A DNA stretch of 64,000 nucleotides from Botryllus schlosseri (taxonomy: Eukaryota): assembly GCA_051294905.1 (NCBI GenBank), contig CM119372.1, positions 496,001-560,000 of the forward strand, read 5' to 3'. The notes beneath the pieces are model-generated. The model was not told the DNA's origin. It ran no database searches and worked only from the letters and a program-made list of their open reading frames with translations. A program made the translations under genes and the position numbers. Below, piece by piece: positions 1 through 57,611 of the stretch (position 1 is the stretch's first letter; each line of letters opens with the position of its first letter).

Positions 1-1877
1 CGAATAAAGCCGCTGCTTTGTACCGCCTTCTTCAAAAAGACGCGAAATTCATTTGGAATACGGACTGTGACGCAGCTTTTCGCATTCTCAAAAACGACGT
101 AATCGACGCTACGCAGTTAGCTCATTATGATGTAAACAAGCAGCTCATTTTGTCAACTGATGCTTCTCAATTCGGAATTGGCGCTGTCCTCTCAATCGAG
201 CACAATGGCGAAGAGAGACCGATCGCGCACGCATCCAAAACACTTTCCGATTCGCAAAAATCCTACTCTCAAATCGAGAAGGAAGCTCTGTCAATCATTT
301 ACGGAGTCACTAAATTTCGTCAATTCTTGTATGGTAGAAAATTTACGCTCGTAACGGACCACAAACCGCTTTTAGCTATTTTCTCGCCAGACAAGAAAAT
401 CCCCGTGATTACAGCGCAACGCTTACAGCGATGGGCACTAACGCTCATGTCTTACCAATACGATATTCGCTATAAACCGACTAATCAGCACGGAAACGCC
501 GACGGTTTATCTCGTCTACCAAAGGGTCCAGACCCTGAGTTTGACGAACTGGAAATTCGTGAAAACGCGGAGATCGTTCACGCTATTAATATGGCATTCG
601 ATGGCTTACCGTTAACTCGCAATGAAATTCGCGACGCGACGCTGAAAGACGAAACCATGAAACTAGTAAAATTATCTGTCACTCATGGTAATTGGAATCC
701 AAAGACGCAAATTGATGATTTTTCTTGGTTTTCGACTCGCAAACATTCGCTTTCTCTGCACGAAGACATAGTCATACTCAATATTGATGGTTTTCAGCGC
801 GTAGTAATTCCGCAGTCACTTCGCTCGCGAGTCTTATCATTGTTGCACGAAGGACTTTGGGGTATCGCGAAAATGAAGCAGATGGCTCGACGTTACATCG
901 CATGGCCTTCCATTAATCGCGACATTGAAAATCTCGTGAAGAGTTGCAACGCTTGCCGCAAGGTAATGAAAGCGCCTGATCGTCAGTATCGCGAATGGCC
1001 TAAAACTTCTGAAAGCTTTGAACGAATTCACTTGGATTTCGCAGGTCCAATAAACAATAAGATGTTTCTTGTCATCGTCGATGCGCATTCGAAATATCCT
1101 TTCGTTAAAGTAATGAATGTCGGTTCTACCACAACCTTGTGTGTGGTCAACGCTTTGAGGGAAGTCTTCTCTATCGAAGGCTTGCCCATAACAATTGTCA
1201 CGGATGGCGGGCCGCAATTCACATCGAATGAATTCGATACGTTTTGTTCTAATTTGGCAATCAGCCATATCGTATCACCGTCTTTTCACCCTGCCTCGAA
1301 CGGGGAAGCGGAGCGTTTCGTCCAGACTTTGAAAGCTGGATCAATAAAAAATTGCGACGGGGGAAAAGATCTCAACTTCGCGCTCCAAACACTTCTCGCT
1401 ACGTACCGATGTGCACCGCACCCGGGCATAGACTGGAAAACGCCTGCCGAGATTTTACATGGTCGACAGCCGCGCAATTTGTTAAGTTTGTGCTCGCCCT
1501 TCGACAAATCAAAACCCGTTACGCCTGGACAATCAGTCACTCATTTCGAGATTGGTTCCGCGGTTTACGCTCGCAGTTACCGAAGCGGACCAAAGTGGGT
1601 TGCTGGCGTGGTGACGGAAATACTGGGGCGTGTTGTGTACATTATAAGAACAGATCATGGGTATTGGAGAAGGCATAAAAACCAACTCCAACCACGCTTG
1701 ATTTCCACAAGTAATGATACAGCCACACAGGAAGTTGCTCAGCCTCAACAGTCCCAAGCTGAGCAACCATTGGTCAGGAATAGGGCACAACGCCCTGCAG
1801 CTAGTCCTGCCCGTACGTCGGGTAGACGTTATCCTCTCAGGAACAGAAAGCAAACCGATTTCTACAGACCTACGTAA
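1..1877 (+). CDS. Ty3/Gypsy LTR retrotransposon pol, 5'-truncated by the window edge (RT connection, RNase H, integrase)
   Basis: 619-aa open frame with RNase H motifs (TDASQFGIGAVL, YSQIEKEALSII, TDHKPL, NADGLSRLP) and integrase DDE core (HLDFAG, TDGGPQF, NGEAERFVQT). No obvious chromodomain. Confidence 0.95.
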   Translation, partial: NKAAALYRLLQKDAKFIWNTDCDAAFRILKNDVIDATQLAHYDVNKQLILSTDASQFGIGAVLSIEHNGEERPIAHASKTLSDSQKSYSQIEKEALSIIYGVTKFRQFLYGRKFTLVTDHKPLLAIFSPDKKIPVITAQRLQRWALTLMSYQYDIRYKPTNQHGNADGLSRLPKGPDPEFDELEIRENAEIVHAINMAFDGLPLTRNEIRDATLKDETMKLVKLSVTHGNWNPKTQIDDFSWFSTRKHSLSLHEDIVILNIDGFQRVVIPQSLRSRVLSLLHEGLWGIAKMKQMARRYIAWPSINRDIENLVKSCNACRKVMKAPDRQYREWPKTSESFERIHLDFAGPINNKMFLVIVDAHSKYPFVKVMNVGSTTTLCVVNALREVFSIEGLPITIVTDGGPQFTSNEFDTFCSNLAISHIVSPSFHPASNGEAERFVQTLKAGSIKNCDGGKDLNFALQTLLATYRCAPHPGIDWKTPAEILHGRQPRNLLSLCSPFDKSKPVTPGQSVTHFEIGSAVYARSYRSGPKWVAGVVTEILGRVVYIIRTDHGYWRRHKNQLQPRLISTSNDTATQEVAQPQQSQAEQPLVRNRAQRPAASPARTSGRRYPLRNRKQTDFYRPT

Positions 1878-2789: not shown

Positions 2790-4636
2790 ACGGCCGTAAA
2801 CCAAACTTTACGCTGATTGGTCGAGAGACAATGGCCGTGGATACGACGCAGCAACGGAGGACGCTGCATTTACTTCAACATGTAGTCGGCACTACGATGT
2901 ATTCCTATAGCCGTGTAGACTGTATAAAAACGACAAGATTACAGTTAAATGTTTATTTCTTCATCAATAATGAAATTAGGAAAGGAAATAAAATATTTAA
3001 TAACATATACTGAAATATAATGCCGAAATACTACTGTGTTTATGAATGCAGTGCCACCAATGGCAATGAACTGGGGAAGAAAAGATTTTTCCATTCATTT
3101 CCTTCCAACGCAAAGGTCAGGAAGGCTTGGGAAAGCAGAGTAAGAAGGCAGGATTTCAAGCCTACTTCCACAAGCTTCATTTACTCCTCATCGCCGACCT
3201 CACTGCAGTTGCACTGACTTAAAAAGCCCAGAAATCACAGTGAGGCGAGCTACAAGTCGGCAGCTAAAGAGCCGATGAATCGCGAGCCGATGCATGAGAG
3301 AGTGGAAAGAATGTCAAAGACAAGAATAAATGCATTGATCAGTTCGAATACTGTCATGTCGTGGAGCACAAAGCCTTAAACAGGCTAAAAGCACCACAGT
3401 TGTGTACAATAATAATAATAATAATAATTTGCTCCTACCAATTTTGCAAGGAAGATTTTGCTGCTAGTGCATTATAGATATACCAATACAGTCACGTCTA
3501 AAGAGAGGTGCGATTCCCAGTCGCAATCTCCGTGGTGAAGCAGAAGATTATGCGCATTGCAAAGAGGCGGACCCTGAACTCCATGCCGTGTCAACTGTCT
3601 TCCTGCAATGTTGTGGATGCTGCACATGCAAATCTGATATTGTCATCTGGTGATCCTGATCTAGAATCGCCATCGTGTAGCCTTGAAATGGAATCTTCAA
3701 ATCCATCACCTGAATCTTAGGGTGAGAAGCCAACGAAGTCAGTCATATGCAGATTAGCTACCTAAGCCCACAGAACATCAGAACAGAGAGGATGTGCAGA
3801 ATGGGGTAAATACATAGGGCTCTTCGACTCACAAGTAGCAATTTTGGTAGGATTTTGGACTGCTTTGAGGGGAACAAGACAGCATGTACTCCATATGCAA
3901 CATCTCTTTTCAAATCACTTCAATGACAGTACAGTATCAACTGGTATTCAATATTGTGGGGGTTATTGCACGAAGAAAGCGCCATTCAAGACTACTAAGC
4001 ATCACGCATGTGAATGTAGCAAAGATTGGTCATGTTCTTTTTCCATATGGATATCTGGGTGCTTCACATGATAGAGTGATTCTAGCTGAGCAGACCTCAT
4101 CTGCACTGGTGTGCTTGAGGTATCGTAACAGCACATGCAATGAGTTCATGAAATTTGAACTTGGGCAGAAATCACAGGAAAGTAGTTTTTATTTGACTGC
4201 TGCTAGATAATTACAAGTAAATCACTCTTATTGGCATCAAATTCAGGCCCAAATGTATGCCACAAATAGTCCTGCCTTCTTATACTCTGCCTTCCCAAGC
4301 CTTTCTGTCCTTTGCGTTGGAAGAAAATGAATGGAAAGATCTGTTCTTCCCCAGTTCATTGCCATTGGTGGCACTGCATTCATAAACACAGTAGTTTTTC
4401 GGCATTATATTTCAGTATATGTTATTAAATATTTTATTTCCTTTCCTAATTTCATTATTGATGAAGAAATAAACATTTAACTGTAATCTTGTCGTTTTTA
4501 TACAGTCTGCACGGCTATAGGAATACATCGTAGTGCCGACTATATGTTGAAGTAAATGCAGCGTCCTCCGTTGCTGCGTCGTATCCATGGCCATTGTCTC
4601 TCGACCAATCAGCGTAAAGTTTGGTTTACGGCCGTA
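2790..4636. mobile_element. Foldback THAP-domain DNA transposon derivative with ~365-bp inverted arms
   Basis: 2790-3153 is the reverse complement of ~4270-4636. Both arms carry a THAP N-terminus (MPKYYCVYECS...FHSFP...RKAWESRVRR). The empty site AAACTAGGCAGAG at ~13654 implies a TA/TAG duplication. Confidence 0.85.
3020..3217 (+). pseudogene. Truncated THAP zinc-finger ORF (transposase N-terminus)
   Basis: MPxxxCxxxC...FHSFP...W pattern; the C-terminal C/HF part is lost or frameshifted. Confidence 0.75.
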
Positions 4637-6235
4637 TAGGCAGAGTGATGATTATTGTCTTACTGCGAGGTAGTGGCGTCTGGAGTGTATTGATAACCTG
4701 ATATACAGCATGGCTTACTCTGTTCTAACAATCACGCAACAATGTACAATGTACATCGAATATATATTTACTACGTGTGGATACTTCTTACGCAAGGAAT
4801 AGCAAAGCTAATTCTTCTGACGTAATAATGAGCAGTGGCGTTTGAAAATCAACCGTTTGCGATATCAATAACCTGGTATAATTATAGAGACTGTAGGATG
4901 GAGCGACGACCCATTGTTCTAAGTTCAGATCCGTCACGCTTGACTTTGCATTCGCGAAAGTCCGATTGTCCTATTTTACATGTAAAAGTATACGCGATTT
5001 CGGAAATGCATGGACGAATTTGAGTGCCGAAAAAGGGTGGAAATATTCTGGCTAGACGGCTCAAATTTTGCATGTCACGAGGAAGCATCAATATGTTCTC
5101 ACTAAAATAATTTCACAACTGTCCTCCACCCAGAACACGTTTAAAATCAATTTCCCGCAATGCCTTATTCAGTGATAAGTTCTCCGCGGCCGAATCCCGT
5201 AAACTCGTAGACAATGCTATAATTGATAAGGCTTTATGCGGTAATAATTGAGTGGCCGTTGAAAGCCGCTGATACCGATACCAAACTATTTTCTGTGCAT
5301 AAGCAACCGATGAAAAAACGAACAGCCTACACGAAAAGCGGATGAAAAAGAGCTACGAAAAGATTATCGATGCATCCAAAAGATCAATATCGTACACTGT
5401 TTCATCGGGCATTAGGCCTATGTTACAGTCTCCTTCTTTCCATCAGGGACCCCTCAAAAGGAGATCGTATCAAGACGTTGCTCCATAAGGAGACGTAAGT
5501 AAAGCAGCTGTCTCAACTTCAACAAAATTAACAGAGTAATTTATAATAGAGCCGCAATCTGCGAAAATCATTTTGAGGAGAGCGATATCATTCAGCTCAA
5601 AACCAGAAAGCAACTCAAAGTGGGAGCTCTGCCTAAGCTAAATTTGCCTTAAAGATGTAGCACAATCATAAAGGTATACCGGGTATCTCTCACTCAGATC
5701 AAGAAACCAATGCACCAAACGATTTCAATTGATATATTTATTCATATAGAAGGCCGGCACACGGAACTAGAATATTGATTGGTCTGCTATTAAATTTCAT
5801 TATTAACACCACACATTCAACAGAATTGCACAATATACCATTCCCTGCTATTGATACCAGACATTCTTGCAGTGGAAACTTTTTCCTCAGCTTGAACAAG
5901 TGCATCAACAATCTTCACGAGCAAAGATGCAGCAAGAAGCTGATGCTGCAGTCCAAGAAGTTTGCTTGCCTGCTGGCAAATGTTGGAGTAGTATTGATAA
6001 ATACCATCAGTACCAACGTCACAGAACACAGCATTCAAGCGTTTGACAGGTGGAAAAATAAGATTTAAATCCAATTCCTCAAATCGTGGTCCACACCTGG
6101 AAATAGAATGACAATTACGGCAAGCAATCTTCAAAATGTTCATTACTCGGTCGATGTCAATTTGCTCAGTTGGTGACGGGAGCTTATGCACTTTCCCGCG
6201 CTTCTTGAGTTCCCTTACAGTGGGAAATATGGCTT

Positions 6236-6512
6236 TGTAGCTGCACATAATACACCTACAAACTATATCCAAGCGATCGCGACTCGTAAATGTATTACGC
6301 TTATTCCTGACGCGTTACCGTTCGAATATTAACATTCTGATACATTCGTACCGCTCTGACTTGCACGCTCAAAAGGTGCCAGTCAGAGAGCATGTTCATA
6401 TTATTGTTGTTGTGATTACAGATTGAGTGTAGCTATACTTGTCTGGTGTTCTCAGTATCGAAATGAGAGTTACGTAGTTAGTTAACTACTCAGTAGGAAA
6501 CGAGTTCCTACA
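6236..6512. mobile_element. Solo LTR (277 bp)
   Basis: TGTAG...CTACA termini, 4-bp TSD GCTT; absent from the paralogous site at ~25360 (ATATGGCTTCACA). Confidence 0.7.
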
Positions 6513-15110: not shown

Positions 15111-16304
15111 GTAGTCAAAAAAAATATGAATCACAAAAAACAACCAACCGAAATCTGTGTAAGGGATTTCAAGTTAAATCATGACGTAGTGTGTCGACAG
15201 TCGGTTGATCACAAATTTCATTTATAGGGCACAGTTCAGCTACAAAAATTCATTGAAAATAACCGTTGACCAATAATGCTAATTTACCGGATTGCTGATC
15301 TCAAATAATATAGTGATACGGTTCTATAGAACCGGTGAGAACCATCACCTGGATCTGACAACTGGTCAAAGGGGGTCAAAGTAGTCATCGTCAAGTAGAA
15401 GTAGAAAATCTACTTGAAGCACTTCAAAAAGGAGAAATACTCGTTACTGACCACCCATGCAACTGTTTTACGGTCAAATTGAGCAAAATCGTCTTCGCAT
15501 TCCCAAGAGATTTTCCTCCCCTGCCCGCAGGTTAAGGTAAACAACTTGTGTAACTGACGACAAATAACGGTTATATCAAACACCTATATAGGCTTCCGTT
15601 AAATGTTACAAAAATTACGCGATACTGCATCGGAGGAGACCTCATTCATATCTATAAATTTTACTTGACCGAAAAACTATTTCAAAAAACACCAATATAA
15701 AGATATGACGACACTGATGTGATTCGCCGTGACGTCATAACCGTAAGTTTAAGTAGCAAGAACGGTCTGGCGAACTTGTAACATCGAACATATGGAAAAT
15801 AAGCGCAATGTGCTATTTTCAGATGATACATGAATTCCTGTTGGTGGATTTCGACAAAAGTCGACTTGAAGGCATTTTTCTGCTTCGATTATTCGAATGT
15901 TGACGCCGTCATATCAGGTGATGTACGATTGTTGATATGCAAAGTTCTTTCCAATTCTGCTGAAGATTGCACCTGACGAGTGTCGGCCGAAAATATTCTG
16001 GTTTATTTCAACATTAATATATTATTCAACTCTCATTGATTTTGGCCACGATGACCTCCCTCGCGCCATCAGTTCAAATGGAATAAAGCTCATCTCATGC
16101 TGTGAACTTGCTATAACTTCCAATCTTTTCATTGTATGGCAATCTTATGGAGGTTTTAAAAGGATAAAATAATTGAAACTCAAGTCATCCAAGAAATTAT
16201 ACCTAACCAAGATGAATATTTCTATAGATACTGTTGCGACCTTTCTTTCTGTATCATAACGTGGAAACATTTCACGAAACGCATCGTGGGCGCAACTTGA
16301 TCCG

Positions 16305-16310
16305 TTTATT
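16305..16310 (-). terminator. Polyadenylation signal of the peptide gene
   Basis: AATAAA on the minus strand about 70 nt after the stop codon. Confidence 0.6.
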
Positions 16311-16378
16311 GAATCCGAATAAAATGATAGAAAATTACGCTACGAAATTTCGTCCTGTGTTACAATTCCCTTCTTCGC

Positions 16379-17549
16379 TCAGCGACTCTCTGAAATATAA
16401 AAAAAAAATCGCGATGAGAAAACGTTTACTCAAACAATAATACATCATTCGTGCCTCCCGGACATATATACCTGCGAAATCTCGGAGCATCTCCGCGTCG
16501 AAATCTGCGAATTGCTCGAGGTCGGCGAGTTCTTTTTCGATTTCCTGCAGATGAGAAAACATGACCTTTAACGAATCCGGAAATGATAAAACTAGCGTTC
16601 ACTTGGATTAGGGATAGGAATTTTATTAAAAGGTTTGCGTTCACACGATCCAGAACCTTTCAAGGGTTGGTTATATTAAACATAGTTGGTCTACTCCATA
16701 GAACATTGTAAACGACATTAGGTGCATTCATTATTGGATAAATACACAACATTCCACTTGTGGATTTCAAGTGTAGCCGGGTCCGACTCAGTTCTCTGTA
16801 ATAGTAAAAATCTTAAAAGTTCAATAATACGACCACGTCTAAATTACGGTCGACTTTACGATTGTACTCACTTCATCGCCATAGTGATGCACCTTTCCGT
16901 AGTTGACAACGTAGCCCCTGAGGAGATTCCTGAACGGAAAAGAAATTAGACAGAATGTGTCGGACTTGGTATTGGGGTTGAAACCCCTCTCATTTCAAAC
17001 TTGTATTAGAGTTGATGTGAAAAACTTATGCGATTCCGATAAATTATTAGTTGATGAGTTGCTACGGAATTGAATCGAGTTATACTTCTGTTTTAGTTAG
17101 TTTCATATTTAAAAGACCGTTAGTTCTATAGTCCTAGTTGCTAGTTTTGAAAAGTGAGTAGTGCTAGTTCTAGTTGTGAAATTTGAAAAGTGAGTATAGT
17201 TCTAGTGCTAGTTACTAGTTTTGGAAAGTGTGGTTCTAGCTCTAGTTTTAATCGCTCACTGTAAAAATTCATTAGTAGTAGTAGGCCTAAGCTTGTATAA
17301 TTTAGAAAATCTAGGCCTACAAGTCTATAAGAGTCCAGACAATCGGGGCATCCTATCGATTTCTCACCTAAGATTCGTGGCGTACGTTCTGATGATCTTA
17401 TTGTACGCCTTGATCTGTACGGCGTACGTGTTGAATGGAGCCACCCACGCGGACATAGTGTAGGCGTTGTAGGTCGCAGGCTTGTAGACAGCCTCCGCCG
17501 GAACCCAAACCGCCACGAGGGCTAGGAGAAGCACGAGCGATATCCTCAT
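16379..17549 (-). CDS. Secreted 107-aa prepropeptide (signal peptide, Tyr-rich cationic peptide, acidic tail); candidate styelin/clavanin-type host-defence peptide
   Basis: Coding exons 17549-17368, 16929-16872, 16544-16472 and 16389-16379, all GT-AG, phases 2/0/1 consistent. Translation: MRISLVLLLALVAVWVPAEA-VYKPATYNAYTMSAWVAPFNTYAVQIKAYNKIIRTYATNLRNLLRGYVVNYGKVHHY-G-DEEIEKELADLEQFADFDAEMLRDFAESR*. AATAAA at 16310-16305. The last acceptor could shift by 2-4 nt (tandem AGs). Confidence 0.8.
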
Positions 17550-19882
17550 ATCTGCAAGACAACGACTGACACTCTGAAGCCAGTTGGCAGCTTCTCAAAG
17601 TAGAAATCCAGGGATGGATTGAACTAAGCAATCACTAGTCGTGGCGTTATAACAGCAGTATGAAAAGTGTGGCAAGTTCAACTATGCATCTTCTCTGCAA
17701 CCGCAATGAATATTATGCCAGTTCTTCATTACATTAAAAATGCTGTGGTATTTTTTTCGATCATGCTCATTTCATTAACATTTACTGGCAATGCGTAGCT
17801 TTGTACTACATGTTCCGTAGGCTGCGATACGACCAATCGAGGTTTTGTGGCTTACACATTGTAAAATAGTATCGAAAATACGTATAATTCTCGTTCATAA
17901 ATCAACTCTTAGTCACTATAGGAGCGTATCATTACAGGGCTCGAAAAAAAATCATGTCTACCTACTCTTCTCGAATCATTAAAATTAATAGGCCTACACG
18001 ATTACCATTTGAATACTCAAATTATTGTGCTCCAGTAATAATACAGTATGATTGAAACTTCACAGCTATTATCGTACTCTGTAGCTGTCATGGTTTGCAA
18101 CATGACAGAAGGTCTTCAGCAATGCAACTAGGACCTGGATGCAATTATCTTTGCCACAGTGGCAGCGTCCTCATCGTAAGGCCGTCTTGATACGTCAAGT
18201 CCCGCGAAGGCTAAAAAATCAACCCTCGGCTTTTCGACACCTCGATATTTTTGAAAATTTGAGTCACTACGTATATATGCTACCGTTGTATACCACTGTG
18301 GACTACAAATACAAATTAGAGAGCACTTTCACATGCGACGTGACATCATGTCCACTATAACCTTTACTGTAGCCAGAAAACGTAATGTGGAACAAAATAG
18401 CTCTTTTGTCTATAGGCCTACTTCCTTGCTACTGAAATCCGTATTCTATCCAATATTTTATCGTAAATCCTCTCACCTTATTATCGAAATTTGCGCCCTA
18501 CAAGTGCGGACCTTCTGGATAACTGAGTTGCGCTCGATGAGTGTAAAAGTGAGTCGATGAATTGCCGCCAGATGGGGCGTAATGACATCCGCTGTTTATG
18601 TTTGGGATTCATCGGATATAGCCGTTTTCATTTGCGGAAGCGACTTTCAGCGCAATTAAGTTCTTGGGGAAATGAGTTTAAACGCGCATGCGGTTTCTGT
18701 TACAGTGTTTACGACTTTTGACACGAAGTTAACGATTTTGATTTTGCGACACACCGACGCGACCAATCCTACCATAGCCTTCACAAAGGCTACGATTGGA
18801 TATAGTTATATAAAGGCGGCCTGGTTGCAAAGAATCTAACAAGGTGCCAGTAGAGGTTGGCATTGAATTCGTAAGCATCGAGTGCACTGTGGCTGTCTAT
18901 GATCGAAAGACTACACAAACTCGTTCCGCCTCCAGCCTATCTTTTCATATTATTGCAATCTTGTTGTGTCTTGAAGTGATAAAAATGAGCTGAACTGAAC
19001 ATTTCTTATCTTACAGCTGGTCTGCCAATATTCTACGTTCAGTATCAGTATCAATATCTAATTGTCATTTCAAAATCCACAAGACTGCGATCTAATCAGA
19101 AGAAGAAATAGAAAGGTGTCGAAACGTTTTGGAGTAGTCTTTGAAATCAGATACCCACCAGGGCCAGCTAGACGATTGTTGCACAATATGTGTATCAATT
19201 TTCGACAAAATTCATCTTTATGTCAATACTGAGAAATTTCGAAGGCATCATGCGTCTATAGAGACTGTAGGCAGAGGTGGTCAGTAACGAAGTACGTCTA
19301 CTTTTTCGAAGTACTCAAGTAGTTTTCCTCTACTTCTGGTACTTACTCAAGTAGATCTGATTTTCGCTACTTCTACTTCTACTTCATAATATTTTGTGAT
19401 CTACTTACTTACTTTTCGCTATTTCCAGCTTGTCAAGTAGAAGTAGTTCAATCTTCCAATCAGGAAGATAGCCTGAGGATTTTCGGGGCTGTTTTCATGG
19501 AGTATCAACATTAAATTTTCATAAAAGTTGAGTAAAGTCCAGAATTTTCGTCGCGCTTCGCGCGTAGTGCTGGATACGGAGTGACCAGTATGATTTCACG
19601 AAAGTATCGGCGAATGTAATTTAGGTAGAGGATTGACGTGGTTCCGTCCACACCACATTGTCACCCTTCGTCCATATCAAATAATTCATCACAGTATATA
19701 TGGCTCATCATAACGTTTGAAACTGATGTTTCACAATCCAGCATTTACTTGTCATATCGTAATCTAGCATGTCCATGGCGTGTCCAAATCTGGAAAAGTG
19801 GAGTCTAACTGTTTTTTCAGTTTTAGAGCTGTTTTAGCATACCACCTTTGAAACTTTCTGGATTAAAAACATGAAATACATG

Positions 19883-24045: not shown

Positions 24046-25175
24046 CTCTAGGAATAACACAAATTAAGTTATAATCATATGAAGTTGTTCAACTTGGGAT
24101 TTTAAAAGGGTTAAGAGGCTGGTGCGGAGCAGTGAAACCACGTTTGATCGTAGTGCAACAACGTTTGATGTTTTACAGTGGTTGTTTAATGCAAAGCTAC
24201 TTGATTCGACACCGTATTTATGCTCGTGTCTGAAACTTTATCTGAACATTGGTGTTTCAACTGCGAGCTGTGTGAGGAGCTTCTCAAAGCTCAAACTGAT
24301 CAAGTCTTATATAATTAGTTCTATCATGATTCATGAATAATGATCGGCTATCAGCTCCATCCATTCTGTCTGTAGAAAGAGACTACGTTCAAAAACTTGA
24401 ATTTGAGGATATTATCGCTGCTTTTGCTTTGAGGCGGCCATTGATTTTCTATTTGTACAATACATTCGTTCGCTATTTCTTGTTTTTATTATTTTTGGCG
24501 TCATTAACGTCGAGACGGTGAAGCTGAGAAGCGGCATATTATTTGTAATTATTCCTATTGACAAGATTACTTGAACATCAATCTATGTCGAAATTTGATG
24601 CGGTCTACCTAGGGGGCGGCATTTTCAAGAGAGCCAGGGGCGGCAGCACATGCTGCTACGCCAGTGATGGTATGTCTTGATTTTAGTATCGAACGCTGTG
24701 CCAAGTCTCAAGGTTGGCACTCAATGATTAGGGCAGCAATTTCGTTATCAAGTTCGAGTATGGTAGAGATGTGCGCTGATCTGACACTTAGCCTACCTAA
24801 CGCATTGCGGATTTCACGCAAAAGCCGGTGTATCTGTGTTCCATACTGAGATAGGTGATGAGATGATGATATCATGAAACAGTTTACTAACATCCTCGGT
24901 TTGCATTCAAATATTTAGTTTTATTTTATATTCTCCAATGTCAATTTCACCGTGGAATGGTGGCCTTCGGGCCATTTGCTCACAATTACAACCCCTGTCA
25001 AGCGCGATAGCTGTTTCGTTTTCGATGGCGGCTAACAGCTTATCGCTTGATCAGCCTATTCCTCAGTATATTTTACGCAAAATTCGGCGTTGATCAATTC
25101 GTATTAATTTTGACAGTGTACCATACCGAAAACGGTCATGAGGCTACTTCTCGATGATTTCATGTAACATTGTAC

Positions 25176-26199
25176 TATAGAGACTGTAGGATTTTAAATC
25201 CAATTCCTCAAATCGTGGTCCACACCTGGAAATAGAATGACAATTACGGCAAGCAATCTTCAAAATGTTCATTACTCGGTCGATGTCAATTTGCTCAGTT
25301 GGTGACGGGAGCTTATGCACTTTCCCGTGCTTCTTGAGTTCCCTTACAGTGGGAAATATGGCTTCACAGACGTCACAACTTATTCCACTCCACTCATCCA
25401 ATCCTTCGAAGCATTGGGAAATTTCCTCCTCGGTGATGGATTCCCAATCCTCCCACAATGATTCTTCGGCCATAACTTTAACGAAAAAGTATCGGTTATA
25501 AAGGAATCAAAATTTCTGTGAAAGCATAATACTCAGAATTTTATTTCCGTTTTGCCGTTTCATTTTCATCGCCTGCCCTTTTATTGTTATCTTCTATCAT
25601 CATATAATACGCCACTATAATAGCTATTATATCATAAATCATCGCTGGTATTCACCGATCGTGCGCATTGCGCAGCGATATACCGGCATATTCATCGCTT
25701 CGTACGGCAACAAACGCAAGACCGTCACGCAAGTATCCAAGATATTCACTAATCAGGCCAAACATATTAGGACGTCCAATTAGTCACGGAGTCCGTTATA
25801 AGTATTCAACCTCCAATACTCCGACCCACTCCCATCGACAACCATGCATTAAAGAACAAAAACTCAACTTTCCACCGTCTGAATTGCATGTGGGATTAAT
25901 AGTGGTACACGTAACAATGGGTAGCTCCCTACGCAAAGCGGAGCGTGACCGATCTAAAGGGAGTTGAAAATATTATTGCGCGCAGTGTAAATAGAGTAGT
26001 TCAACTTATATAGATATTTCGGTATATCAATGCCCTAATACCAGTATAATATAAAATATTTATAGTAATATGGGCAATAATACCATAAATATTCATTTTT
26101 ACAAGATAATTGCTGCAAAACCACGCAAACAAAATATGTTGCGGATGAATATTAATTAGGCATTTAAATCAGTCGTCACTCAATCCTACAGTCTCTATA
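25176..26199. mobile_element. P-like family A, copy 2 (internally deleted)
   Basis: TIR TATAGAGACTGTAGGAT / ATCCTACAGTCTCTATA; 7-bp TSD ATTGTAC; empty site at ~8180; carries a C2H2 ORF on the minus strand. Confidence 0.9.
25194..25473 (-). pseudogene. Transposon-borne ORF fragment: acidic N-terminus plus C2H2 zinc finger
   Basis: MAEESLWEDWESITEEE...CDVCEAIFPTVRELKKHGKVH. A longer copy interrupted by the solo LTR lies at ~5817-6626. Confidence 0.6.
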
Positions 26200-27542: not shown

Positions 27543-30500
27543 CACTGGCGTAGCAGCCACCTGGCGGTTCTGGCTCTGCGCCAGGGGCGGCAGGCTCGAA
27601 GGGGGCGGCAAAATGAGGCTGCACCAGCCGGCTAAAAGCAGCGTTATTGGTAGTCCTATATCTGGCGTCCCGCGAGTTGAATTTAATCAAACTGGTCTCA
27701 ATCGAAAGCTAGTGTTGCGCTGATTCCGTAAACACGAATTAATAAGTTAACATGGCAATGGAACCACTCCTAAATAGCCGTCATGGCCGGTTGTTTTTAA
27801 CAATCGCAACACAATGACCAATTGGCCATGATAATGGAAATTATATCGAGCGATTATTCGGAACTACGCCGATTTTGAGACTAGCATTTAAATTGTATTT
27901 CCGGAATCAGGCCACCAATAGCTTTCGATGAAGATCAGTATTGTTAAATTTGAGCACTCGGAGGGCCTTGTCAACTACAGGATGACTAAGACCAATTAAT
28001 TATGCTGCTTTTAGCTGGCTCAGCAGTACGCTTGTCTGCGTATTCAAGTGTGAGAACTAAGTTGCGCAATGCGCATCTATTCGTAGGTTAGTGGTCTATA
28101 CTCCGAGTTACGATTTGGTACAGCAGACCGAGATAGCTGTGAAGGTAAACCAGTCCTAGGAATTGCTTAAGTTGGTAATAAATGTCAGATTGACAGATTG
28201 TGCTTAAATTTATACAAGTGTTAATTAAGACTCGAAAATAAAACGTGTCAAGAGAGTGGAGCTTTCTTTAGAAAGAAGAAGAAAGCAAGACAAACAGAAA
28301 TACAGAAGCAGATTTAAACTTGAAACTGAAACTAGGTTTACCGGCACACACCACTTAAATGATATGTTTGGATTTTTACTCCCCAGGCGCTGCTGCAAAG
28401 CGAAAGTCCCAATTTATTCACCAGCGCTTTTAAAAGCACTCATGACGACGAGGTGGACTTATTGGAGTTAGCTGCGGAAATTGACAGATTTAAGACGCTG
28501 GTGCGGAGCAGTGAAACCAAGTTTGATCATATAGTGCAGTGCTTTTCAACCTGTGTGACGGTTCGCACTTGTGCGAATGAAAAAAATTGCAGTGCGAATG
28601 ACGAACATGGTGCGAACGGTGCGAATGAAAATCACGGATGAGTGCGAATGACGAAGGTGGGGCGAACGGTGCGAATGAAAATCCCCGATGAGTGCGAATG
28701 AAAATCGTGAATAATAATTAATTTGTCTGACCTGGAATAATTCAAATAAACCTTATAGGAAATTCAAGGGCAGTGTAACTTTTGTTGTTGCGACGCAATT
28801 GTATAAACTTGTTTAACCTACGACGCACCTATATAGTCGTAGCTCTCACAAGCCGTACTATTTTCGCACTATAATTATTACGTAACCAAAAGCCTGGTTT
28901 GTAAGCTGGGGTAGTGGCAGACATACTGTATATCAGCCCATCTGAGCCTGCGACAGGCTTGGGAAAATGACGTTAAATTGACTTTCTGCTTACTTTCGCT
29001 AAACAATCATCATATTCCGTAACACCTGTTCGATTAGTTCGAGGCACTAGGATAGTAGTAAATACCATCATCACAGACTCCCATTTGCAGGTAACCGTGA
29101 CGCAAATTTTGCCCCTTCAAGCGTTATTAAATTATGAACTGCAAAAGGTATAATTTTGGGTCGACACGGTGTCAGAGCTATCTGTTAATATCTATGTAAT
29201 ATTTGATGAATTTATAGCAAAAATCCTGCGATAGTTTTTACAAATCTAAGGTCACGGTCGTTCGGATGAACTAGTGTAGGTGTGTGCAACGAGCGGGTTC
29301 AGGCCTATGAGACTCATTAATTTCGAGGCAAACCCTTCTGCGTCGGGTCACATGAAGACGAAAAGTTTTGGCCAACAAACGGCTGATAAAATACGGTGCC
29401 AAAACATAAGCGTCGACAAAACCTTGGCCAAAGAATGACCGATACTGGATGGCAAAACCATTCGATATGGATACGCTCCATTGTCGGCACGGAATAGTCC
29501 CGTTCTTGCAATCTGAGTATAGAGTACACAGTAGTACAACTGCGACAAGCAAAGGAAATTAATTCACCCTAATTTGAAATCACGTGCGTCAGAAATTTTG
29601 TAGAGCTGCGTTGGATAGAATTGTGGTGTGCGCGTTCGGTATGTCATGCATGTCCGTAAAGTCATAGTATACTACTGTAATATTAAAAATGAATTCCTTT
29701 TCATGGGCGAGGCTCAGGTTGCGAGATGCTACAGAAACTCAGATTTTGGTGGTAGTCTAAAAAACTGTTTTAACGTTATTAAACTGTCATGAATTCTCAA
29801 GTTAGATTGAGCTAAAGAACAGAACACACAGAATCGAGAGTTTATTTGCTCTTACCACATACTCGCGGAACAGAAAATCGGAAATCGAAAACAGTTGGAG
29901 CAACGTATCATAAGGTAGCGAGCTTTAATGTGCCTAATTTCCTTGATCATAATGGATCTTATTTTCCAAGACAAAGGCAAAAGCCTCAACACAAACAAGT
30001 GGGTTTTTCACCCTTTCGACATACTGGAGCCTCCTAGACCTTTGTGTCAGCTCTCAAAATCGATTTTTTTTCAGCAAGCATTTTTCTCTCGTGAACAAAT
30101 ACGGTGTATGTTGGATAGGAGTGCAGAACAGACTTCAAGACCTGGCCATCCAAGCACTAGTGGAAGGGTTATAGTGAAATAGTTAAAATCAAAACGAGCG
30201 AAAATACAGTAACCTTTTTAACGAGACACTTAATAGCTCAAGATAGGCCTACATAGTAGCCAATTTGTCGCACATTTGATCAAATAAATGTTGCATTTTC
30301 ATGTTCTTTTTGTGTAACAATATTCGGTTAGTTTGTGCGAATGAAATTTATTTTACAAAAAAAGTGCGAATGAAGCTCAAAAAGGTTGAAAAGCACTGAT
30401 ATAGTGCAACGGCGTTTGATGTTTTACAGTGGTTAGTTAATGCAAAGCTACTTGATTGGACACCGTATTTATGCTCGTGTCTGTAACTTTATCTGACCAT

Positions 30501-31728
30501 TGATGTTTCAATTGCGAGCTGTGAGAGGAGCTCCTCAAAGCTCAAACTGATGAGGTCGTATTTACGTTCTGCCATGAATGATGATCGCCTATCAGCTCTA
30601 TCCAATCTGTCTATTGAAAGAGACTACGTTCAAAAACTTGAATGTGAGGATATTATCGCTGATTTTGTTTCGGCGAAAGCCCGAAATGTTATGTTTTGAG
30701 GCGGCTATTGATTTTCTATTTGCACAATATTATTATTATATTCTTTATTCACAGTAAAACTGGTAGATACACACATAATCCGGGGAGCAACCTGCCCCCA
30801 AAGGAAAATGGCGAGATTGGAGTAAATTTTTAAAATTTCAGTAATACATTCAAATTGTTATTCCTATGCAATACACGGAGAAGTCAGATTACAGAATTGC
30901 AGCAGATGAAGAATTGGCAAGGGTTACAGAGCAGAGGTAGAGATGATTGAAGATGAAGAATCGAAATTACAGAAATTATGCTGTGATTCACAAGTGTAAT
31001 TTTAGTCCAGTGGCGCATTCAAGGCCTTCCGAAGAATGTGCACAGTGCCCAATAATGTGATTTTCTGGATCATGTCGAATCGAACGTTACCCGAACGTTA
31101 TTATTATTATTAGTATGAATTCAAGGCATTTCAATGACGCCTGTTAGGCCTTGCGCATCACGACATGGAAACTATACAGTTCAGTGTCATTGTCTTTTTA
31201 AGTATCGTTGATATTTGCGTCTTTCTTCAAGCGCTTCGCGATCGTTCACTTTCATTTCACTATTCACTTTTCATTTCACTCCCCCATGTATTCAACTTCT
31301 GGTCTCGCATGCCGACTTTGTGCAGCGTGGCTTATTGTGTTTCTGGGTCTTTTCAAGACAGCACTGTTAGTACAACGGGATCAGCGATGAAGAGCCCAGA
31401 TAAACCTCCGACACATAGAAACTAGCTTGAGCATGGGTTCGGACTAACCACCATTGGTGCCGCAGCACAGTTGATTTACACACTGCGTCACTCGTCGCCT
31501 CCCCTATGTGCACAATACATTCGTTCGATATTTCTTGTCTTTATTATTTTTTACCTTATTAACGTTGAGACGGTGACGCTGAAACGCGGCATATTTTTAT
31601 TTTTTTTAATTATCTTTATTGACAAGATTGCTTGAACAGGAATCTATGTCGAAATTTGCTGCGGTCTGCTTAGGGGGCGGCATTTTTATCGAGAGCCAGG
31701 GGCGGCAACAGATGCTGCTACGCCAGTG
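27543..31728 (+). mobile_element. hAT element family C, copy 2
   Basis: TIR CACTGGCGTAGCAGC / GCTGCTACGCCAGTG; perfect TSD GGTCTAAT; hAT dimerisation remnant at ~30470-30700. Confidence 0.9.
28537..30398. mobile_element. hAT MITE with GTGCGAATGA subterminal repeats
   Basis: TIR CAGTGCTTTTCAACCT / AGGTTGAAAAGCACTG; perfect TSD ATATAGTG. Confidence 0.9.
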
Positions 31729-43216: not shown

Positions 43217-45435
43217 GGTTGGTTCGATTGGTTTGAAATAAGGACAAATATGTTAGAAATGAGGTGAGTCTCATGTCAGAAATGAGGATAGTCATGTCAG
43301 AAATGAGGATAGTCATGTCAGAAATAAGGATAGTCGCTATATTCACTATAAAGTCAGTTACAGTACCAGGCACGACTTTCTAGTGCTGCTAACCCAGTCC
43401 GAACACATCCCAGACATGATGTCCAAACACGCCCCAGACACGATGTCCGGGTATCAACACAGGCCGAACACGCCCAAGACACCATGTCCGAATGGCAACA
43501 CAGGCCGAAAACACCCCAGACATGATGTCTGAACACGCCCCAGATACGATGTCCGGGTATCAACACGGGCCGAACACGCCCAAAAGACACCATGTCCGAA
43601 TGGCAACACGGACCGAACACGCCCCAGACACGATGTCCGAGTGTCAACTCAGATCCGAAAACAACCCAGACACCATGCTTGAATAGCCGAACATGTCCCA
43701 GACACGATGTCCGATTGGCAGCACAGGCCGAACACACCACAGACATGATGTCCAAACACGCCCCAGATACGATGTCCGGGTATCAACACAGGCCGAACAC
43801 GCCCTAGACATCATGTGTGAATGGCAGTACAGGCCGAACACCCCCCCCCAGACATGATGTCTGAACACGCCCCAGATACGTTGTCCGGGTATCAACACGG
43901 CCGAACACACCCAAGACACCATGTCCGAATGGCAGCTCAGATCCGAAAACAACCCAGACACCATGCTTGAATGGCCGAACATGCCCCAGACACGATGTCC
44001 GATTGGCAGGACAGGCCGAACACACCACAGACATGATGTCCAAACACGCCCCAGATACGATGTCCGGGTATCAACACAGGCCGAACACGCCCTAGACATC
44101 ATGTGTGAATGGCAGTACAGGCCGAACACCCCCCCCCCCCCATCCAGACATGATGTCCGAACACGCCCCAGATACGTTGTCCGGGTATCAACACGGCCGA
44201 ACACACCCAAGACACCATGTCCGAATGGCAGCACAGGCCGAACACACCCCAGACACAATGTCCGAACACAGCCGAGACACCATGTTTGAATGGCCGAACA
44301 TGCCCAAGACACGATGTCCGATTGGCAGCACAGGCCGAACACACCCCAGACATGATGTCCAAACACGCCCCAGATACGATGCCCGGGTATCAACACAGGC
44401 CGAACACGCCCAAGACACCATGTCCGAATGGCAACACAGGCCGATAACACCCCAGACATGATGTCCGAATACGCCCCAGATACGAAGTCCGGGTATCAAC
44501 ACGGGCCGAACACGCCCAAGACACCATGTCCGAATGGCAACACAGGCCGAACACACCCCAGACACGATGTCCAAGTATCAACACAGGCCGAACACGCCCA
44601 AGACACCATGTCCGAATGGCAACACGGACCGAACACGCCCCAGACACGATGTCCGAGTGTCAACTCAGATCCGAAAACACCCCAGACACGATGTCCGATT
44701 GGCAGCACAGGCCGAACACAACCCATACATGGTGTCGGAACGCCCCAGACACGATGTGCTATTGGCAACACAGTCCCAACACCCCCCAGACACGATGTTA
44801 ATAATTAAGGTTGGTCGTGTTTGAAATAAGGTCAGTCTAGTGTTTGAAATAAGGATAGTCATGTTAGAAATAAGGATAGCCATGTTTGATATAGGGATAG
44901 TCATGTTTGAAATAAGGATAGTCTCATGTTTGGAATGAGGATAGTCATGTCAGAAATGAGGATAGTCATGTCAGAAATAAGGATAGTCGCTATATTCACT
45001 ATAAAGTCAGTTACAGTACCAGGCACGACTTTCTAGTGCTGCTAACCCAGTCCGAACACATCCCAGACATGATGTCCGAACACGCCCCAGATACGATGTC
45101 CGGGTATCAATACAGGCCGAACACGCCCGAGACATCATGTCCGAATGGCATCACAGGCCGAACACACCCCAGACATAATGTGTGAATGGCATCATAGGCC
45201 GACCACATCCCAGACATGATGTCCGAAGTCGCCGCAGACACAATGTCCGAACACAGCCGAGACACCATGTTTGAATGGCCGAACATGCCCCAGACACGAT
45301 GTCCGATTGGCAGCACAGGCCGAACACACCCCAGACATGATGTCCGAACTCGCCGCAGACACGATGTCTGAGTGTCAACTCAGGCCGACACGCCCCAGAT
45401 ATAATGTCTGAATGGCATCATAGGCCGAACACGCC
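43217..45435 (+). repeat. Left arm of the large foldback: 21-bp repeats plus 24/17-bp modular satellite
   Basis: (GAAATGAGGATAGTCATGTCA)n, a fixed spacer, then CCGAACACGCCCCAGACACGATGT and CCGAATGGCAACACAGG / CCGGGTATCAACACAGG units; the whole module occurs twice. Confidence 0.9.
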
Positions 45436-49745: not shown

Positions 49746-51274
49746 CACAACCAGAGGTGGTCAAAGTAGTCAAGAAATCTACTCAAGTAGAAGTAGAAGT
49801 AGCGACGAAAAAATCTACTCAAGTACGAGTAGAAGTACTTCTTCCATGAGCAACCTAAAACTACTTGAAGGTGAAGTAGAATTGACTGACTTTAAAAGTA
49901 CTCAAGTAAGTAAGTAGTTGTGAAAATGATCCTAATTCGTTCACGTGGATTGTGAACAGGTGACGAGCTTGATTCATATTAATGCATACCAACAGGCAAC
50001 AGGTATCCAATTTTCGATAGCATAAGCATTCATTCTCATTATGATAGTATTGATATGGAAATGCTATACTAATCCTCTGTTTTCTCGAACAGCACGTTTT
50101 AGAAAATAGCATGGTACGGCGCCATCCCCCATATTATAAGGCCCGTAGTTTAGTCGAAGAGTAATACGGAGAAGTTATATAGAATACGGTGTAAACACTT
50201 TGCGCAATTAGTAAGAGATCAAGATCAAGAGATCGAGCACACGCAAGGTCGTAGCCAGAAAAACAAATTTTTTTTTTGGGGGGGGGGATTATGGCTTTAG
50301 GGGAGCTCTCCCGTGGGAACATCTCGCAGAACCGTACATCCTGCCATAGGCAATTTCATCACTACCCTTTATACATACGATTCTTAGACGCACACAGACA
50401 CATACCCTATGGAAGCTTCCAGTTGCCAACTATAGCTTATCTATATCGAAGGCTTCGGAATACATGGGTCGGATTTATGGTGGTCAATCATTTCGGGAGC
50501 GCACTTTGCGGAGTAGCATGTAGCATACTTTATATATCTTCGTGTGTCCCGAAACGGTAGCCTAGTTGCCGGAGCTAACAGTTCCCAACCGCCATACTGA
50601 ACTGACACTCCTACAGACTCAATCAACCCAACGACCTCGGGCTACACTAGTGTATCTACTGGTCCTGTTGTATTCTCATAATTGAGAATGCAGCTAAATT
50701 CAATAATGGGTATTTGCGGAATAATTTTTTTTCGTGACACCGATAACAAAATCAAGACATGAACGGACACCAAATCGCGCCAAGCGCGAAGAAAAATTTT
50801 AGGTTGCATACTTTTGCCCCAAAATACTCTAATATCTATTGATTTTACGAAAATTTTCAATAAATTTGGGGGGGGGCAACCGCCCCTTTCGTCCCCCCTG
50901 GCTACGCCAGTGCGTCCAACATCCAACTTCGCATCGGCATTTGAAATTATAGACGTGTAACCAGGAGTCTTCGATATTTATATGTGTGAGCCCCAAATAT
51001 TCCTGTCCTTGTCAAATAAACCCAGCGGCAAACACAGGCGACCCGCAATAAATGCAAGGGACATTAGTATCGGCCGAACTCATAAATTAACTTTGAATGA
51101 AACTACAATTTACCAATACCGATCTTGATCGAAAGCTATTTCGCACATACAATTTTAAAGCTGGCAGGTCAACGGAACCACCAATAAATATAGCCGTCCA
51201 AGTCTGAAATCTGGAAATCGGCATTGTTCCGAATGATCGCTCGATAAAATTCCATTATCCTGGTCAATTATTCA

Positions 51275-55132: not shown

Positions 55133-57611
55133 GATTTCCAGTAAACTCGGCCCAAGGTAAATTCGGCCCTCGGTGAATTCGGCCGTCGGTAAATTCGGCC
55201 CTCGGTAAATTCGGCCAGGGCCAGAGTAACAATAACAGTTACAATACCATTACCTAACCTGAACCCTAACCCTAATCCTAACCTAACTCTCATCCTAACT
55301 TAACCCTAATCCTAACCTAACCCCAATCTTAACCTAATCCTAACCCTAACCTAATCCTAACCCTAACGCTAATCCTAACCCTAAACCTAACCCCTAACCT
55401 CCAAATCACTTGATAATATACCGATTGAATTCGGCTGTTGGTAAATTCGGCCCCGTAAACATCGGCATATATATATACAATACATATATATATTTACACG
55501 CATACCCTGTTCTCCAAATCACTTGATAATAATATAATTATGAAATTAATTCACATTAATAATTGGTAATACATTTTTATAAAAAATTCTCCGAGGGCAG
55601 AATTGACCGAGTGACGGGACACTGTAAAACCCGCAAAAGCAAGGTATATTCAAGTAATTGTATAGGTATCTTTTACAATATTGTCGCTGTAGGCCTCAAA
55701 AGATATCATGGATTAGTTATGGAATTAAACTGCCGGTAACTATACAGCAGGGTTTTGCGGGTGACTATCAGGGTTTTGCAGTTGGCTACGAGGGTCTTGC
55801 GGTTGTCCAGAAGGGTTTTGTGGGAACCTAACTGGGTCTTGCGAGTGATTAGCAGGGTTTTGCGGTTGTCTAAGAGAGTTTTGCGGGTGAAAAATAGGGT
55901 TTTGCGGTTGTCTAAGATAGTTTTGCGGGTGAAAAATAGGGTTTTGTGGTTGTCTAAGATAGTTTTGCGGGTGAAAAATAGGGTTTTGCGGTTGTCTAAG
56001 ATAGTTTTGCGGGTTAAAAATAGGGTTTTGCGGTTGTCTAAGAGAGTTTTGCGGGTTAAAAATAGGGTTTTGCGGTTGTCTAAGATAGTTTTGCGGGTGA
56101 AAAATAGGGTTTTGCGGTTGTCTAAGAGAGTTTTGCGGGTGAAAAATAGGGTTTTGCGGTTGTCTAAGATAGTTTTGCGGGTGAAAAATAGGGTTTTGCG
56201 GTTGTCTAAGATAGTTTTACTGGTGAAAAATAGGGTCTGCGGTTGTCTAAGATAGTTTTGCGGGTGAAAAATAGGGTTTTGCGGTTGTCCAAGAGTTTTG
56301 CGGTTGTATAGGAGAGTTTTGCGGTTGACTTCCAGAGTTTTGCGGTTGTTAAGTAGAGTTCTGCAGGTAACTAGCAGGGTTTTGAAGGTGACTAGCAGTA
56401 GTCAACCTCAAACTCTCCTATACAACTGCAAAACTCTCTTGGAAAACCGCAAAACTCTAGTAGTCAACCTCAAAACTCTCCTATACAACCGCAAAACTAT
56501 CCTAAACTCTGGTAGTCAACCCCAAAACCCCATTTTTCACCCGCAGAACTCTCTTAGACAACCGCAAAACCATGTTAGGTAACCATAAAACCTTTCTGGA
56601 CAACCGCAAAACCCTCGCAGTCAACTCCAATACCGTACTAGTCACCCGCAAAACCCTCACTGTATAGTTAATTTCATAACTAATCCATGATATCTCGAGG
56701 CCATACAGCGACAATATTGTAAAAGATACTCACAATTACCTGAATATGCCTTGCTTATTGCGAGTTTTGCAAGTTTTGCGGGTTTTGCGGTTGTATAGGA
56801 TAGTTTTGCTGTTGACTACCAGAGTTTTGCGGCTGTATGGGAAATTTTTGCGGTTGTATAGGAGAGTTTTGCGGTTGTATAGGAGAGTTTTGAGGTTGAC
56901 TACTAGAGTTTTGCGGTTGTATACGAGAGTTTTGCATTAGGACACGAGAGTTTTGCGGTTGTATAGGAGAGTTTCGAGGTTGACTACTGCTAGTCACCTT
57001 CAAAACCCTGCTAGTTACCTTCAAAACTCTTCTATACAACCGCAAAACCCTATTTTTCACCCGCATAACTCTCTTAGACAACCGCAAAACCTTATTTTTC
57101 ACCCGCAAAACTCTTTTAGACAACCGCAAAACCCTATTTTTCACCCGCAAAACTCTCTGAGACAACCGCAAAACCCTGCTAATCACCCGCAAGACCCTGT
57201 TAGGTTCCCACAAAACCCTTCTGGACAACCGCAAAACCCGCGTAGCCAACTGCAAAACCCTGCTGTATAGTTACCGGCAGTTAAATTCCATAACTAATCC
57301 ATGATATCTTGAGGCCTACAGCGACAATATTGTAAAAGATACCTACAATTACTTGAATATACCTTGCTTTTGCGAGTTTTGCGGGTTTTACAGTGTCCCC
57401 CGAGTGACCGGTGAATTCGGCCGTCGGTAAATTCGGTCCCCGTGAATATCCGCGCTATCTCCCGTGATTACGCGATCTACGCATACCCTGACATCCAAAT
57501 CACTTAATAATTATTAACGGTTGGTAATACATTTTAATACAATATTCTCGGAGGGCCGAATTTACTGATGTCATGGGCCGAATTTACCTTGGGGCGAGTT
57601 TACTGGCAACC
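55133..57611. mobile_element. TIR MITE with AATTCGGCC repeats and (CCTAAC)n core
   Basis: GATTTCCAGTAAACTCG ... CGAGTTTACTGGCAACC; TSD ATTTCAAT. A related degenerate element lies at ~58643-59784. Confidence 0.75.
55616..57399. mobile_element. Mutator-like foldback element with 21-bp tandem repeats
   Basis: GGGACACTGTAAAACCCGCAAAA ... TTTTGCGGGTTTTACAGTGTCCC; perfect 9-bp TSD CCGAGTGAC; arms built of TTTTGCGG-core 21-mers. Confidence 0.9.

Follow-up and report, generated by a model that had tools for sequence, protein, structure and literature searches.

The stretch of DNA considered here, hereafter the window, covers 64,000 nucleotides (nt) of the genome of the ascidian Botryllus schlosseri (GenBank assembly GCA_051294905.1, contig CM119372.1, positions 496,001 to 560,000 of the forward strand), and it carries on its minus strand a small gene of five exons, from about position 18567 down to 16287 of the window, for a product of 107 amino acids that reads as the putative precursor of a secreted, tyrosine-rich peptide. 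This gene is real, spliced and strongly transcribed. A preliminary description made from the letters alone had remarked that the open reading frames give only pieces of it, which is indeed the case (76, 51 and 87 amino acids from stop to stop), and had proposed four coding exons at 17549-17368, 16929-16872, 16544-16472 and 16389-16379; joined across introns that all read GT..AG, these make up 324 nt in frame, that is 107 codons followed by TGA.

Public sequencing data bear this model out. The stretch has 24 listed public runs, 20 of which contain part of it, and four were mapped to the window; the share of sampled words found in a typical run (0.2-0.36) is about the amount expected from the exons alone. 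The three coding junctions predicted from the letters are crossed by 120 (16929/17368), 93 (16544/16872) and 68 (16389/16472) raw reads of X23, a bulk RNA sequencing (RNA-seq) run sampled at about 6 in 100 reads, and all three show CT..AC ends on the plus strand, that is GT..AG on the strand of the gene. One 509-nt contig of X3 spans the three junctions and a contig of X2 spans two of them. With both read directions summed, X23 depth amounts to about 100-270 across the coding exons and to 0 in most bins of the introns and flanks, with about 1-3 over a repeat that lies in intron 1 and in bins immediately downstream of the gene. Such deep coding exons amid near-silent introns and flanks indicate that, in the X23 sample, the gene is transcribed as a unit of its own rather than from within an expressed host gene.

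The gene is wider than the interval 17549-16379 first proposed. It opens with a non-coding 5' exon of about 91 nt without ATG (18477..18567), supported by X23 reads and by the X3 contig; its outer end is taken from the contig end rather than from a mapped start, so that the exon measures at least 91 nt. We considered whether the transcript might receive a spliced leader in trans, as 189 X23 reads continue past 17553 into letters that are not adjacent in the genome. These letters match 18479-18508 with one mismatch, and the upstream exon to which they belong ends in ...ATAAG followed by GTGAGA, a GT donor, which rules out the tunicate spliced leader in favour of ordinary cis-splicing. The intron thus removed from the 5' untranslated region (UTR), which we call intron 0 (17552..18476), is 925 nt long and reads GT..AG, with an X23 depth of 0 in the bins 17554-17750.

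Exon 1 (17368..17551, X23 depth about 230) comprises 2 nt of 5' UTR, the start codon at 17549-17547, a putative signal peptide of 20 amino acids (17490..17549) and the first 41 residues of the putative mature part. It is followed by intron 1 (16930..17367, 438 nt) and by exon 2 (16872..16929), established from the sequence and the reads, which encodes the end of the basic tyrosine-rich region (...GKVHHY), a glycine codon at 16880-16878 and then D-E. Beyond intron 2 (16545..16871, 327 nt), exon 3 (16472..16544) contributes 24 codons and 1 nt of an acidic tail, is covered by reads and is single copy in the genome. Intron 3 (16390..16471, 82 nt) precedes exon 4 (16287..16389), with the last three codons, the TGA at 16381-16379, the 3' UTR and an AATAAA at 16310-16305; the contigs stop at 16287-16290, 15-20 nt past this signal. 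Introns 2 and 3 are each confirmed by the contigs of X2 and X3 besides the junction reads, and the exon lengths (91 + 184 + 58 + 73 + 103) add up to an mRNA of 509 nt, which is the length of the X3 contig.

Intron 1 also holds a tandem repeat of a 38-base-pair (bp) unit in 2.8 copies (17129-17230), which reaches a word depth of 336-526 in runs X1 and X2 while the surrounding intron is silent, which marks it as a dispersed repeat transcribed elsewhere.

Constraint and a second transcript version

Ten coding variants occur in the X23 reads at shares between 0.10 and 0.90, half of them synonymous and half replacements (V>I, A>T, R>K, L>V and R>L); four of the five replacements are conservative and none falls on a tyrosine. 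Scaled to 71.7 synonymous and 249.3 non-synonymous sites, the replacement-to-silent ratio comes to about 0.29, from counts that are small and to which a second gene copy may have added some variants, and we take it as a sign of purifying selection on the coding sequence.

Many X23 reads that fit one exon continue into letters resembling but differing from the neighbouring exon. They define a second transcript version (window 16379-17551) with a different end of exon 2, a different start of exon 3 and a different 3' UTR, and 15 X23 reads cross a variant junction at 16391/16475. Read in frame, the divergent fragments apparently retain HHYGDE at the boundary together with the first part of the tail and differ before and after these, as judged from consensus strings whose agreement is low (0.57-0.72) and besides which there are 118 further loose ends. 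One 30-mer of this version is absent from the assembly. The second version has the appearance of either a highly divergent haplotype or a paralogue that the assembly lacks.

Relatives and copy number

The gene is single copy in the assembly (495.5 Mb in 219 contigs, searched with exons 1, 2 and 3). Searches of the genome with these exons and with the relative described below returned only the gene itself and one match at E 0.7 that is full of stops, and in the window tblastn with the joined product gave, besides the gene, no match below E 0.9.

Outside the assembly, relatives are extremely scarce. An exhaustive HMMER search with the 60 residues of exon 1 against 1.84 billion representative proteins gave one match at E <= 0.001, and neither the product itself nor a full-length relative is among these proteins. 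The sole match, P0001, is a 59-residue unnamed product of one 2.6-kb Logan contig (E 2.9e-7, 44% identity); it aligns along the entire exon and evidently represents exon 1 of a related gene, translated as far as the following stop. The alignment holds 25 identical columns, including the leader end W-x-P-x-E-A, a tryptophan and a Pro-Phe pair, and P0001 keeps five of the six tyrosines of exon 1 while being richer still in tyrosine than the Botryllus product. The earlier view that the mature sequence has no homologue was therefore nearly right, with one unnamed relative to be added. An identity of 44% with key residues kept shows a gene with a history longer than that of a single species, or else a deep paralogue split.

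A word-index protein search with exon 1 yielded no candidate, the same search with a two-sequence profile yielded three, among which only P0001 is relevant, and the ESM Atlas contained no usable match. A scan of JGI metagenomes gave 106 pattern matches, one of which passed tblastn; it was rejected as a 12-residue chance match in an unrelated open frame. In the literature no description of the gene was found, and none of the papers searched contains a 10-residue motif taken from the product.

Composition, amphipathicity and modelled fold

All the counts by which the preliminary description had divided the product proved exact: a leader of 20 amino acids, a putative mature part of 57 residues with no D or E, 7 K or R, 2 H and 9 Y (16% tyrosine), a single G, and a tail of 29 residues with 12 D or E. 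Read by eye, the leader consists of M-R, a hydrophobic core of 14 residues and P-A-E-A, with small residues at positions -3 and -1. The 57-residue part has an isoelectric point (pI) of 9.9 and a charge of +6.9, the tail a pI of 4.05 and a charge of -9.2, and the product minus its leader amounts to 87 amino acids and 10.2 kDa. The precursor contains no dibasic site (KR, RR, KK or RK) and no RXXR in its 107 residues; the boundary between its halves reads ...HHYG/DEE, with an acidic residue directly after it and no basic motif. Two Tyr-Gly sites are present, Y-G-K and Y-G-D.

From about residue 17 to residue 57 the mature part is strongly amphipathic, with an Eisenberg moment that peaks at 0.71 over residues 28-45, a value reached by 2 of 2000 shuffles. 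Positions 22-26-29-33-36-40-43-47-50-54-57, taken in steps of three and four, read Y-I-Y-I-Y-L-L-Y-N-V-Y; the best ladder of this kind carries large apolar residues at 11 of 11 positions, which 3 of 5000 shuffles reach. The heptad register of tyrosines 22, 29 and 36, to which the preliminary description had drawn attention, is correct in its spacing and conserved in P0001 at all three positions, but a run of three tyrosines seven apart turns up in 10.7% of 20000 shuffles and is by itself not beyond chance: it is one strand of the wider 3-4 ladder, which does exceed chance. Modelled with AlphaFold2, exon 1 is all helix, with a mean predicted local distance difference test (pLDDT) score of 66.7 and the best values at residues 41-60 (block means 74-79). 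The acidic tail is presumably helical too.

Fit to the ascidian precursor layout

Ascidian linear cationic peptides are described as being made from precursors ordered as signal peptide, cationic amphipathic helix and anionic C-terminal proregion, without the basic motifs at which frog precursors are processed and with D or E at the boundary, styelins being cut N-terminal to D and clavanins N-terminal to DD (PMC7387483). Under this rule, a cut before D at ...HHYG/DEE would fit the ascidian pattern. The Ciona screen in the same paper was limited to products of 50-100 amino acids with a signal peptide, no cysteine and no transmembrane segment, which hold an 18-residue cationic window (hydrophobicity 0-0.6, moment 0.1-1.0, net charge +3 to +10) and, C-terminal to it, an anionic helical region with a net charge of -3 to -10 (PMC7387483).

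The layout found here agrees with most of these numeric limits. Cysteine is absent from all 107 residues. With a hydrophobic moment (muH) computed from Fauchere-Pliska values, 24 of the 70 18-residue windows, starting at mature residues 17-34 and 36-41, are cationic and amphipathic within the published ranges (peak muH 0.62). The anionic range applies to 23 windows of the 70, that is to 23 of the 25 that start at mature residues 46-70.

Genomic neighbourhood

The gene stands alone among transposon remains. A Pfam scan of 126 of the 173 stop-to-stop frames of at least 60 amino acids between 2 and 43 kb (8 frames overlapping the gene and 39 beyond 35.6 kb were left out) returned above cut-offs only one THAP domain and two hAT-transposase dimerisation domains (plus-strand positions 3014-3214, 24083-24337 and 30487-30696), left behind by DNA transposons. 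At the left edge, an open frame of 624 amino acids (3-1874, plus strand) belongs to the pol gene of a long terminal repeat (LTR) retrotransposon, with RNase H, integrase zinc-binding and integrase core domains, and extends past the start of the window.

Two minus-strand frames, 5820-6314 and 25147-25506, have a long near-identical peptide in common and represent one element in two copies. Further to the right, GC-rich (up to 55%) repetitive blocks at about 43350-44820 and 51260-54060 have several frames open on both strands, and the same peptide-like repeats, oppositely oriented in the two blocks, make them look like a large inverted pair of a satellite-like array. Tandem repeats at 55706-57270 keep three frames open for about 0.7 kb, twice, with no meaningful Pfam match.

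What the gene may encode

The features gathered above lead us to favour, by analogy, a lineage-restricted propeptide of host-defence type, belonging with the linear cationic amphipathic peptides of ascidians, and we would give this reading a probability of roughly 40%. The signal peptide of 20 residues would send the product into the secretory pathway. The 57 basic residues (net charge +7) would end in an amphipathic helix of about 40 residues whose apolar face is the 3-4 ladder of Tyr, Ile and Leu, and the tail of 29 residues (net charge -9) would form a second helix that neutralises the basic one during storage. Upon release, the tail would be cut off N-terminal to Asp, as in styelins and clavanins, and the cut would free a basic, tyrosine-rich, membrane-active host-defence peptide, the C-terminal glycine of which may serve for its amidation. 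All these steps are inferred, from secretion and storage with the two helices paired to cleavage and amidation, and so are any tyrosine modification and any antimicrobial action. The preliminary description had proposed either a host-defence peptide or a DOPA-type (3,4-dihydroxyphenylalanine) metal-binding or tunic peptide held inactive by its acidic tail, an interpretation that is partly supported by the present results.

Several observations weigh against a host-defence propeptide. The entire secreted product is mildly acidic (pI 5.6) and, left uncut, would have no cationic character whatever. The first 16 residues of the putative mature part are near-neutral and aromatic, with two prolines, and the confidence of the AlphaFold2 model is low, the model covering exon 1 only and resting on an alignment of two sequences. 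No Pfam family was recovered for the three exon pieces or for P0001, and the best match of the two-sequence profile among PDB sequences has an E value of 0.6. Antimicrobial regions are classically held, from work on amphibians, to diverge faster than their own signal peptides; P0001 is identical to the Botryllus product at 17 of 40 positions in the mature part and at 8 of 20 in the signal peptide, so that the two are equally conserved. BLASTP of exon 1 (60 amino acids) against exon 1 of botryllin from the same genome (50 amino acids) gave no alignment at E values up to 100. The basic part is long, with 57 residues against 32-37 in styelins and botryllin, and its charge density is low, with +7 in 57 residues against +11.2 in 37 for botryllin (PMC9966394). 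Finally, the limits of the Ciona screen are loose and its authors caution about false positives (PMC7387483), and the precursor with its 107 amino acids falls outside the length limit of 50-100, which is a convenience of the search rather than a biological boundary.

The product may instead never be cut and act whole, as a small secreted helical protein of 87 amino acids folded into an antiparallel hairpin or paired between chains in a coiled coil, such as a plasma or matrix component, a carrier or a binding protein with no antimicrobial role. The 3-4 ladder over about 36 residues is typical of coiled coils, the charges of the two halves are opposite and matching (+6.9 and -9.2), the boundary lacks a recognised protease motif, conservation in the basic part equals that in the signal peptide, and a moderate constraint on replacements extends over the full coding sequence with its tail. 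On the other hand, ascidian precursors of exactly the same layout, described as equally devoid of protease motifs, are still cut before D or E (PMC7387483). A structural or carrier role would moreover come without a match to any fold or family in Pfam or among PDB sequences, and the hairpin itself is conjectural. On balance we hold an uncleaved protein to be unlikely, though deserving of serious attention.

The tyrosines invite another explanation, namely that the product is a tyrosine donor, a substrate of morula-cell phenoloxidase whose tyrosines are converted to DOPA or trihydroxyphenylalanine (TOPA) and which is then cross-linked or binds metal (in clotting, extracellular nets, tunic repair or adhesion), or whose ...HHY end is trimmed to a plicatamide- or tunichrome-like compound. 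Nine tyrosines in 57 residues, five of the six testable ones conserved and P0001 richer still, are consistent with such a function, and the second transcript version seems to keep HHYGDE, although with the modest consensus agreement given above. The DOPA idea draws, by analogy, on this tyrosine content and on the chemistry of ascidian blood cells, that is on styelin D, plicatamide, tunichromes and morula-cell phenoloxidase (PMC3039461, PMC9966394): DOPA and TOPA peptides occur in these cells, plicatamide ends in His and a modified Tyr-derived residue (PMC3039461), and Botryllus morula cells release phenoloxidase together with polyphenol substrates (PMC9966394, section 12). Yet tyrosine at 16% of the basic part is modest compared with known DOPA proteins, and tyrosines on the apolar face of a helix are explained by ordinary helix packing or membrane insertion. 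Ferreascidin, for instance, is mostly aromatic. The tyrosine donor seems to us rather improbable.

Alternatively, the gene could be a young, lineage-restricted one whose product has no settled function and owes its resemblance to antimicrobial precursors to composition alone. It has a single relative among 1.84 billion representatives, is surrounded by transposon remains and is single copy; but the relative retains 44% identity with key residues kept, the replacement-to-silent ratio is about 0.29, and expression is strong with precise splicing of four introns, which makes this origin very doubtful. It is scarcely credible that the product is a neuropeptide or hormone precursor giving amidated peptides, e.g., ...NY-amide from Y-G-K or ...HHY-amide from Y-G-D, for although it has a putative signal peptide, a small size and two Tyr-Gly sites able to donate an amide, it lacks any dibasic site in 107 residues, its long amphipathic helix with an acidic tail is not a neuropeptide layout, and its high depth in a bulk RNA run is presumably unlike that of most neuropeptide genes.

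Returning to the host-defence propeptide, it is tempting to combine it with the tyrosine chemistry and to see in the gene the founding member of a "tyrosine-ladder" family restricted to botryllids or styelids. In this bolder scheme, a peptide of about 57 residues would be stored in a form neutralised by its acidic tail, cut before Asp and amidated at ...HHY; the conserved tyrosines lined up on one face of its helix would undergo hydroxylation to DOPA and then oxidation by the phenoloxidase of morula cells, and the peptide would both permeabilise microbes and cross-link into Botryllus nets or clots. We consider the full scheme a long shot. If it were true, the gene would offer the first genetic handle on how the Tyr-derived DOPA peptides of ascidians are encoded, and if the peptide is released and active, it would add a new, unrelated sequence family to the few host-defence peptides of ascidians, with unusual features in its length, its apolar face of tyrosines and its His-His-Tyr-Gly end, in an animal that serves as a model colonial chordate for allorecognition and innate immunity. 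Should the product be an uncleaved helical protein instead, this would be an ordinary lineage-restricted gene. In either case, small multi-exon genes for secreted peptides are still missing from protein collections, and splice-aware reading combined with RNA evidence can recover them.

Comparison with known ascidian peptides

Styelins A-E, from Styela clava, and botryllin, from Botryllus schlosseri, are close parallels in architecture; they come from the same animal family and are Tyr-containing basic helices with an acidic C-terminal propiece cut before D. The styelin-like architecture put forward in the preliminary description stands as far as the tripartite layout is concerned, and the G/D boundary fits the published rule of cutting (PMC7387483); kinship with the styelins fails, in view of the missing BLASTP match to botryllin exon 1, the missing KHK motif and the 57 residues of the basic part. 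The styelin/botryllin family is marked by this KHK motif and by 30-37.5% identity between mature peptides (PMC9966394), and KHK does not occur in the 107-residue product. Styelins have 32 amino acids (PMC3039461) and botryllin, in its mature form, 37 residues with a charge of +11.2 from a precursor of 158 amino acids (PMC9966394), compared with +7 and 107 amino acids here; the two genes also lie on different chromosome-scale contigs, C11 for botryllin and C2 for the present gene. Judged by sequence, and with botryllin exon 1 as the only direct comparison, the gene is not kin to the styelins and belongs to no named family.

Botryllin was located in the assembly with a 19-nt primer published for quantitative polymerase chain reaction (PMC9966394, Table 3), which has one exact match and another, 55 kb away, with one mismatch. 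At this locus one exon encodes a signal peptide and a basic peptide holding the start of the published N-terminal epitope, and the next exon completes this epitope and nearly matches the second one. Botryllin exon 1 is organised like exon 1 of the present gene, with a signal peptide followed by the first part of the mature peptide, and the boundary to the propiece, which reads ...KKWKK then DSDKEL in the genome (published boundary in PMC9966394, Table 4), continues with D as ...HHYG/DEE does here. The botryllin gene itself occurs twice on C11, at 9117417-9117435 and 9172179-9172197; the two exon-1 peptides differ at few residues and the second exon is slightly unlike the published epitope. Three transcript variants of botryllin are reported, with the choice between paralogues and isoforms left open (PMC9966394, section 12), and two loci in the assembly argue for at least one tandem duplication.

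Clavanins of Styela clava carry a glycine before their acidic C-terminal extension and are amidated. The present product likewise has a glycine before its acidic tail, and a His pair near the C-terminus of the basic part; the clavanins differ from it in being 23-residue peptides rich in His and Phe (PMC2866484), a comparison by description only. The C-terminal His-His-Tyr is also reminiscent of the end of plicatamide, His-Phe-His-(modified Tyr), from the stolidobranch ascidian Styela plicata (PMC3039461), and the present sequence is Tyr-rich besides. Plicatamide, morulin Pm and tunichromes are, however, either very small peptides, with between 2 and 8 residues, or a polypeptide defined by its chemistry, unlike the precursor of 107 amino acids described here. 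We know of no published precursor gene for any of the three.

The Ci-MAM and Ci-PAP families of Ciona and the further candidates of the Ciona screen share with the present product the order of segments, the absence of cysteine, the lack of a basic motif and the acidic residue at the boundary (PMC7387483). Even the tail, with E-I-E-K-E-L, looks by eye like the start of the anionic helix of Ci-MAM-A, E-I-E-D-E-L (PMC7387483, Table 1), a likeness to be read as that of two low-complexity acidic helices. The Botryllus product differs from the Ciona class in showing no detectable homology, in its 107 residues and in a basic part of 57 residues that begins with a near-neutral aromatic stretch of 16; and its apolar face is dominated by Tyr, where the Ciona peptides have Leu, Val or Trp.

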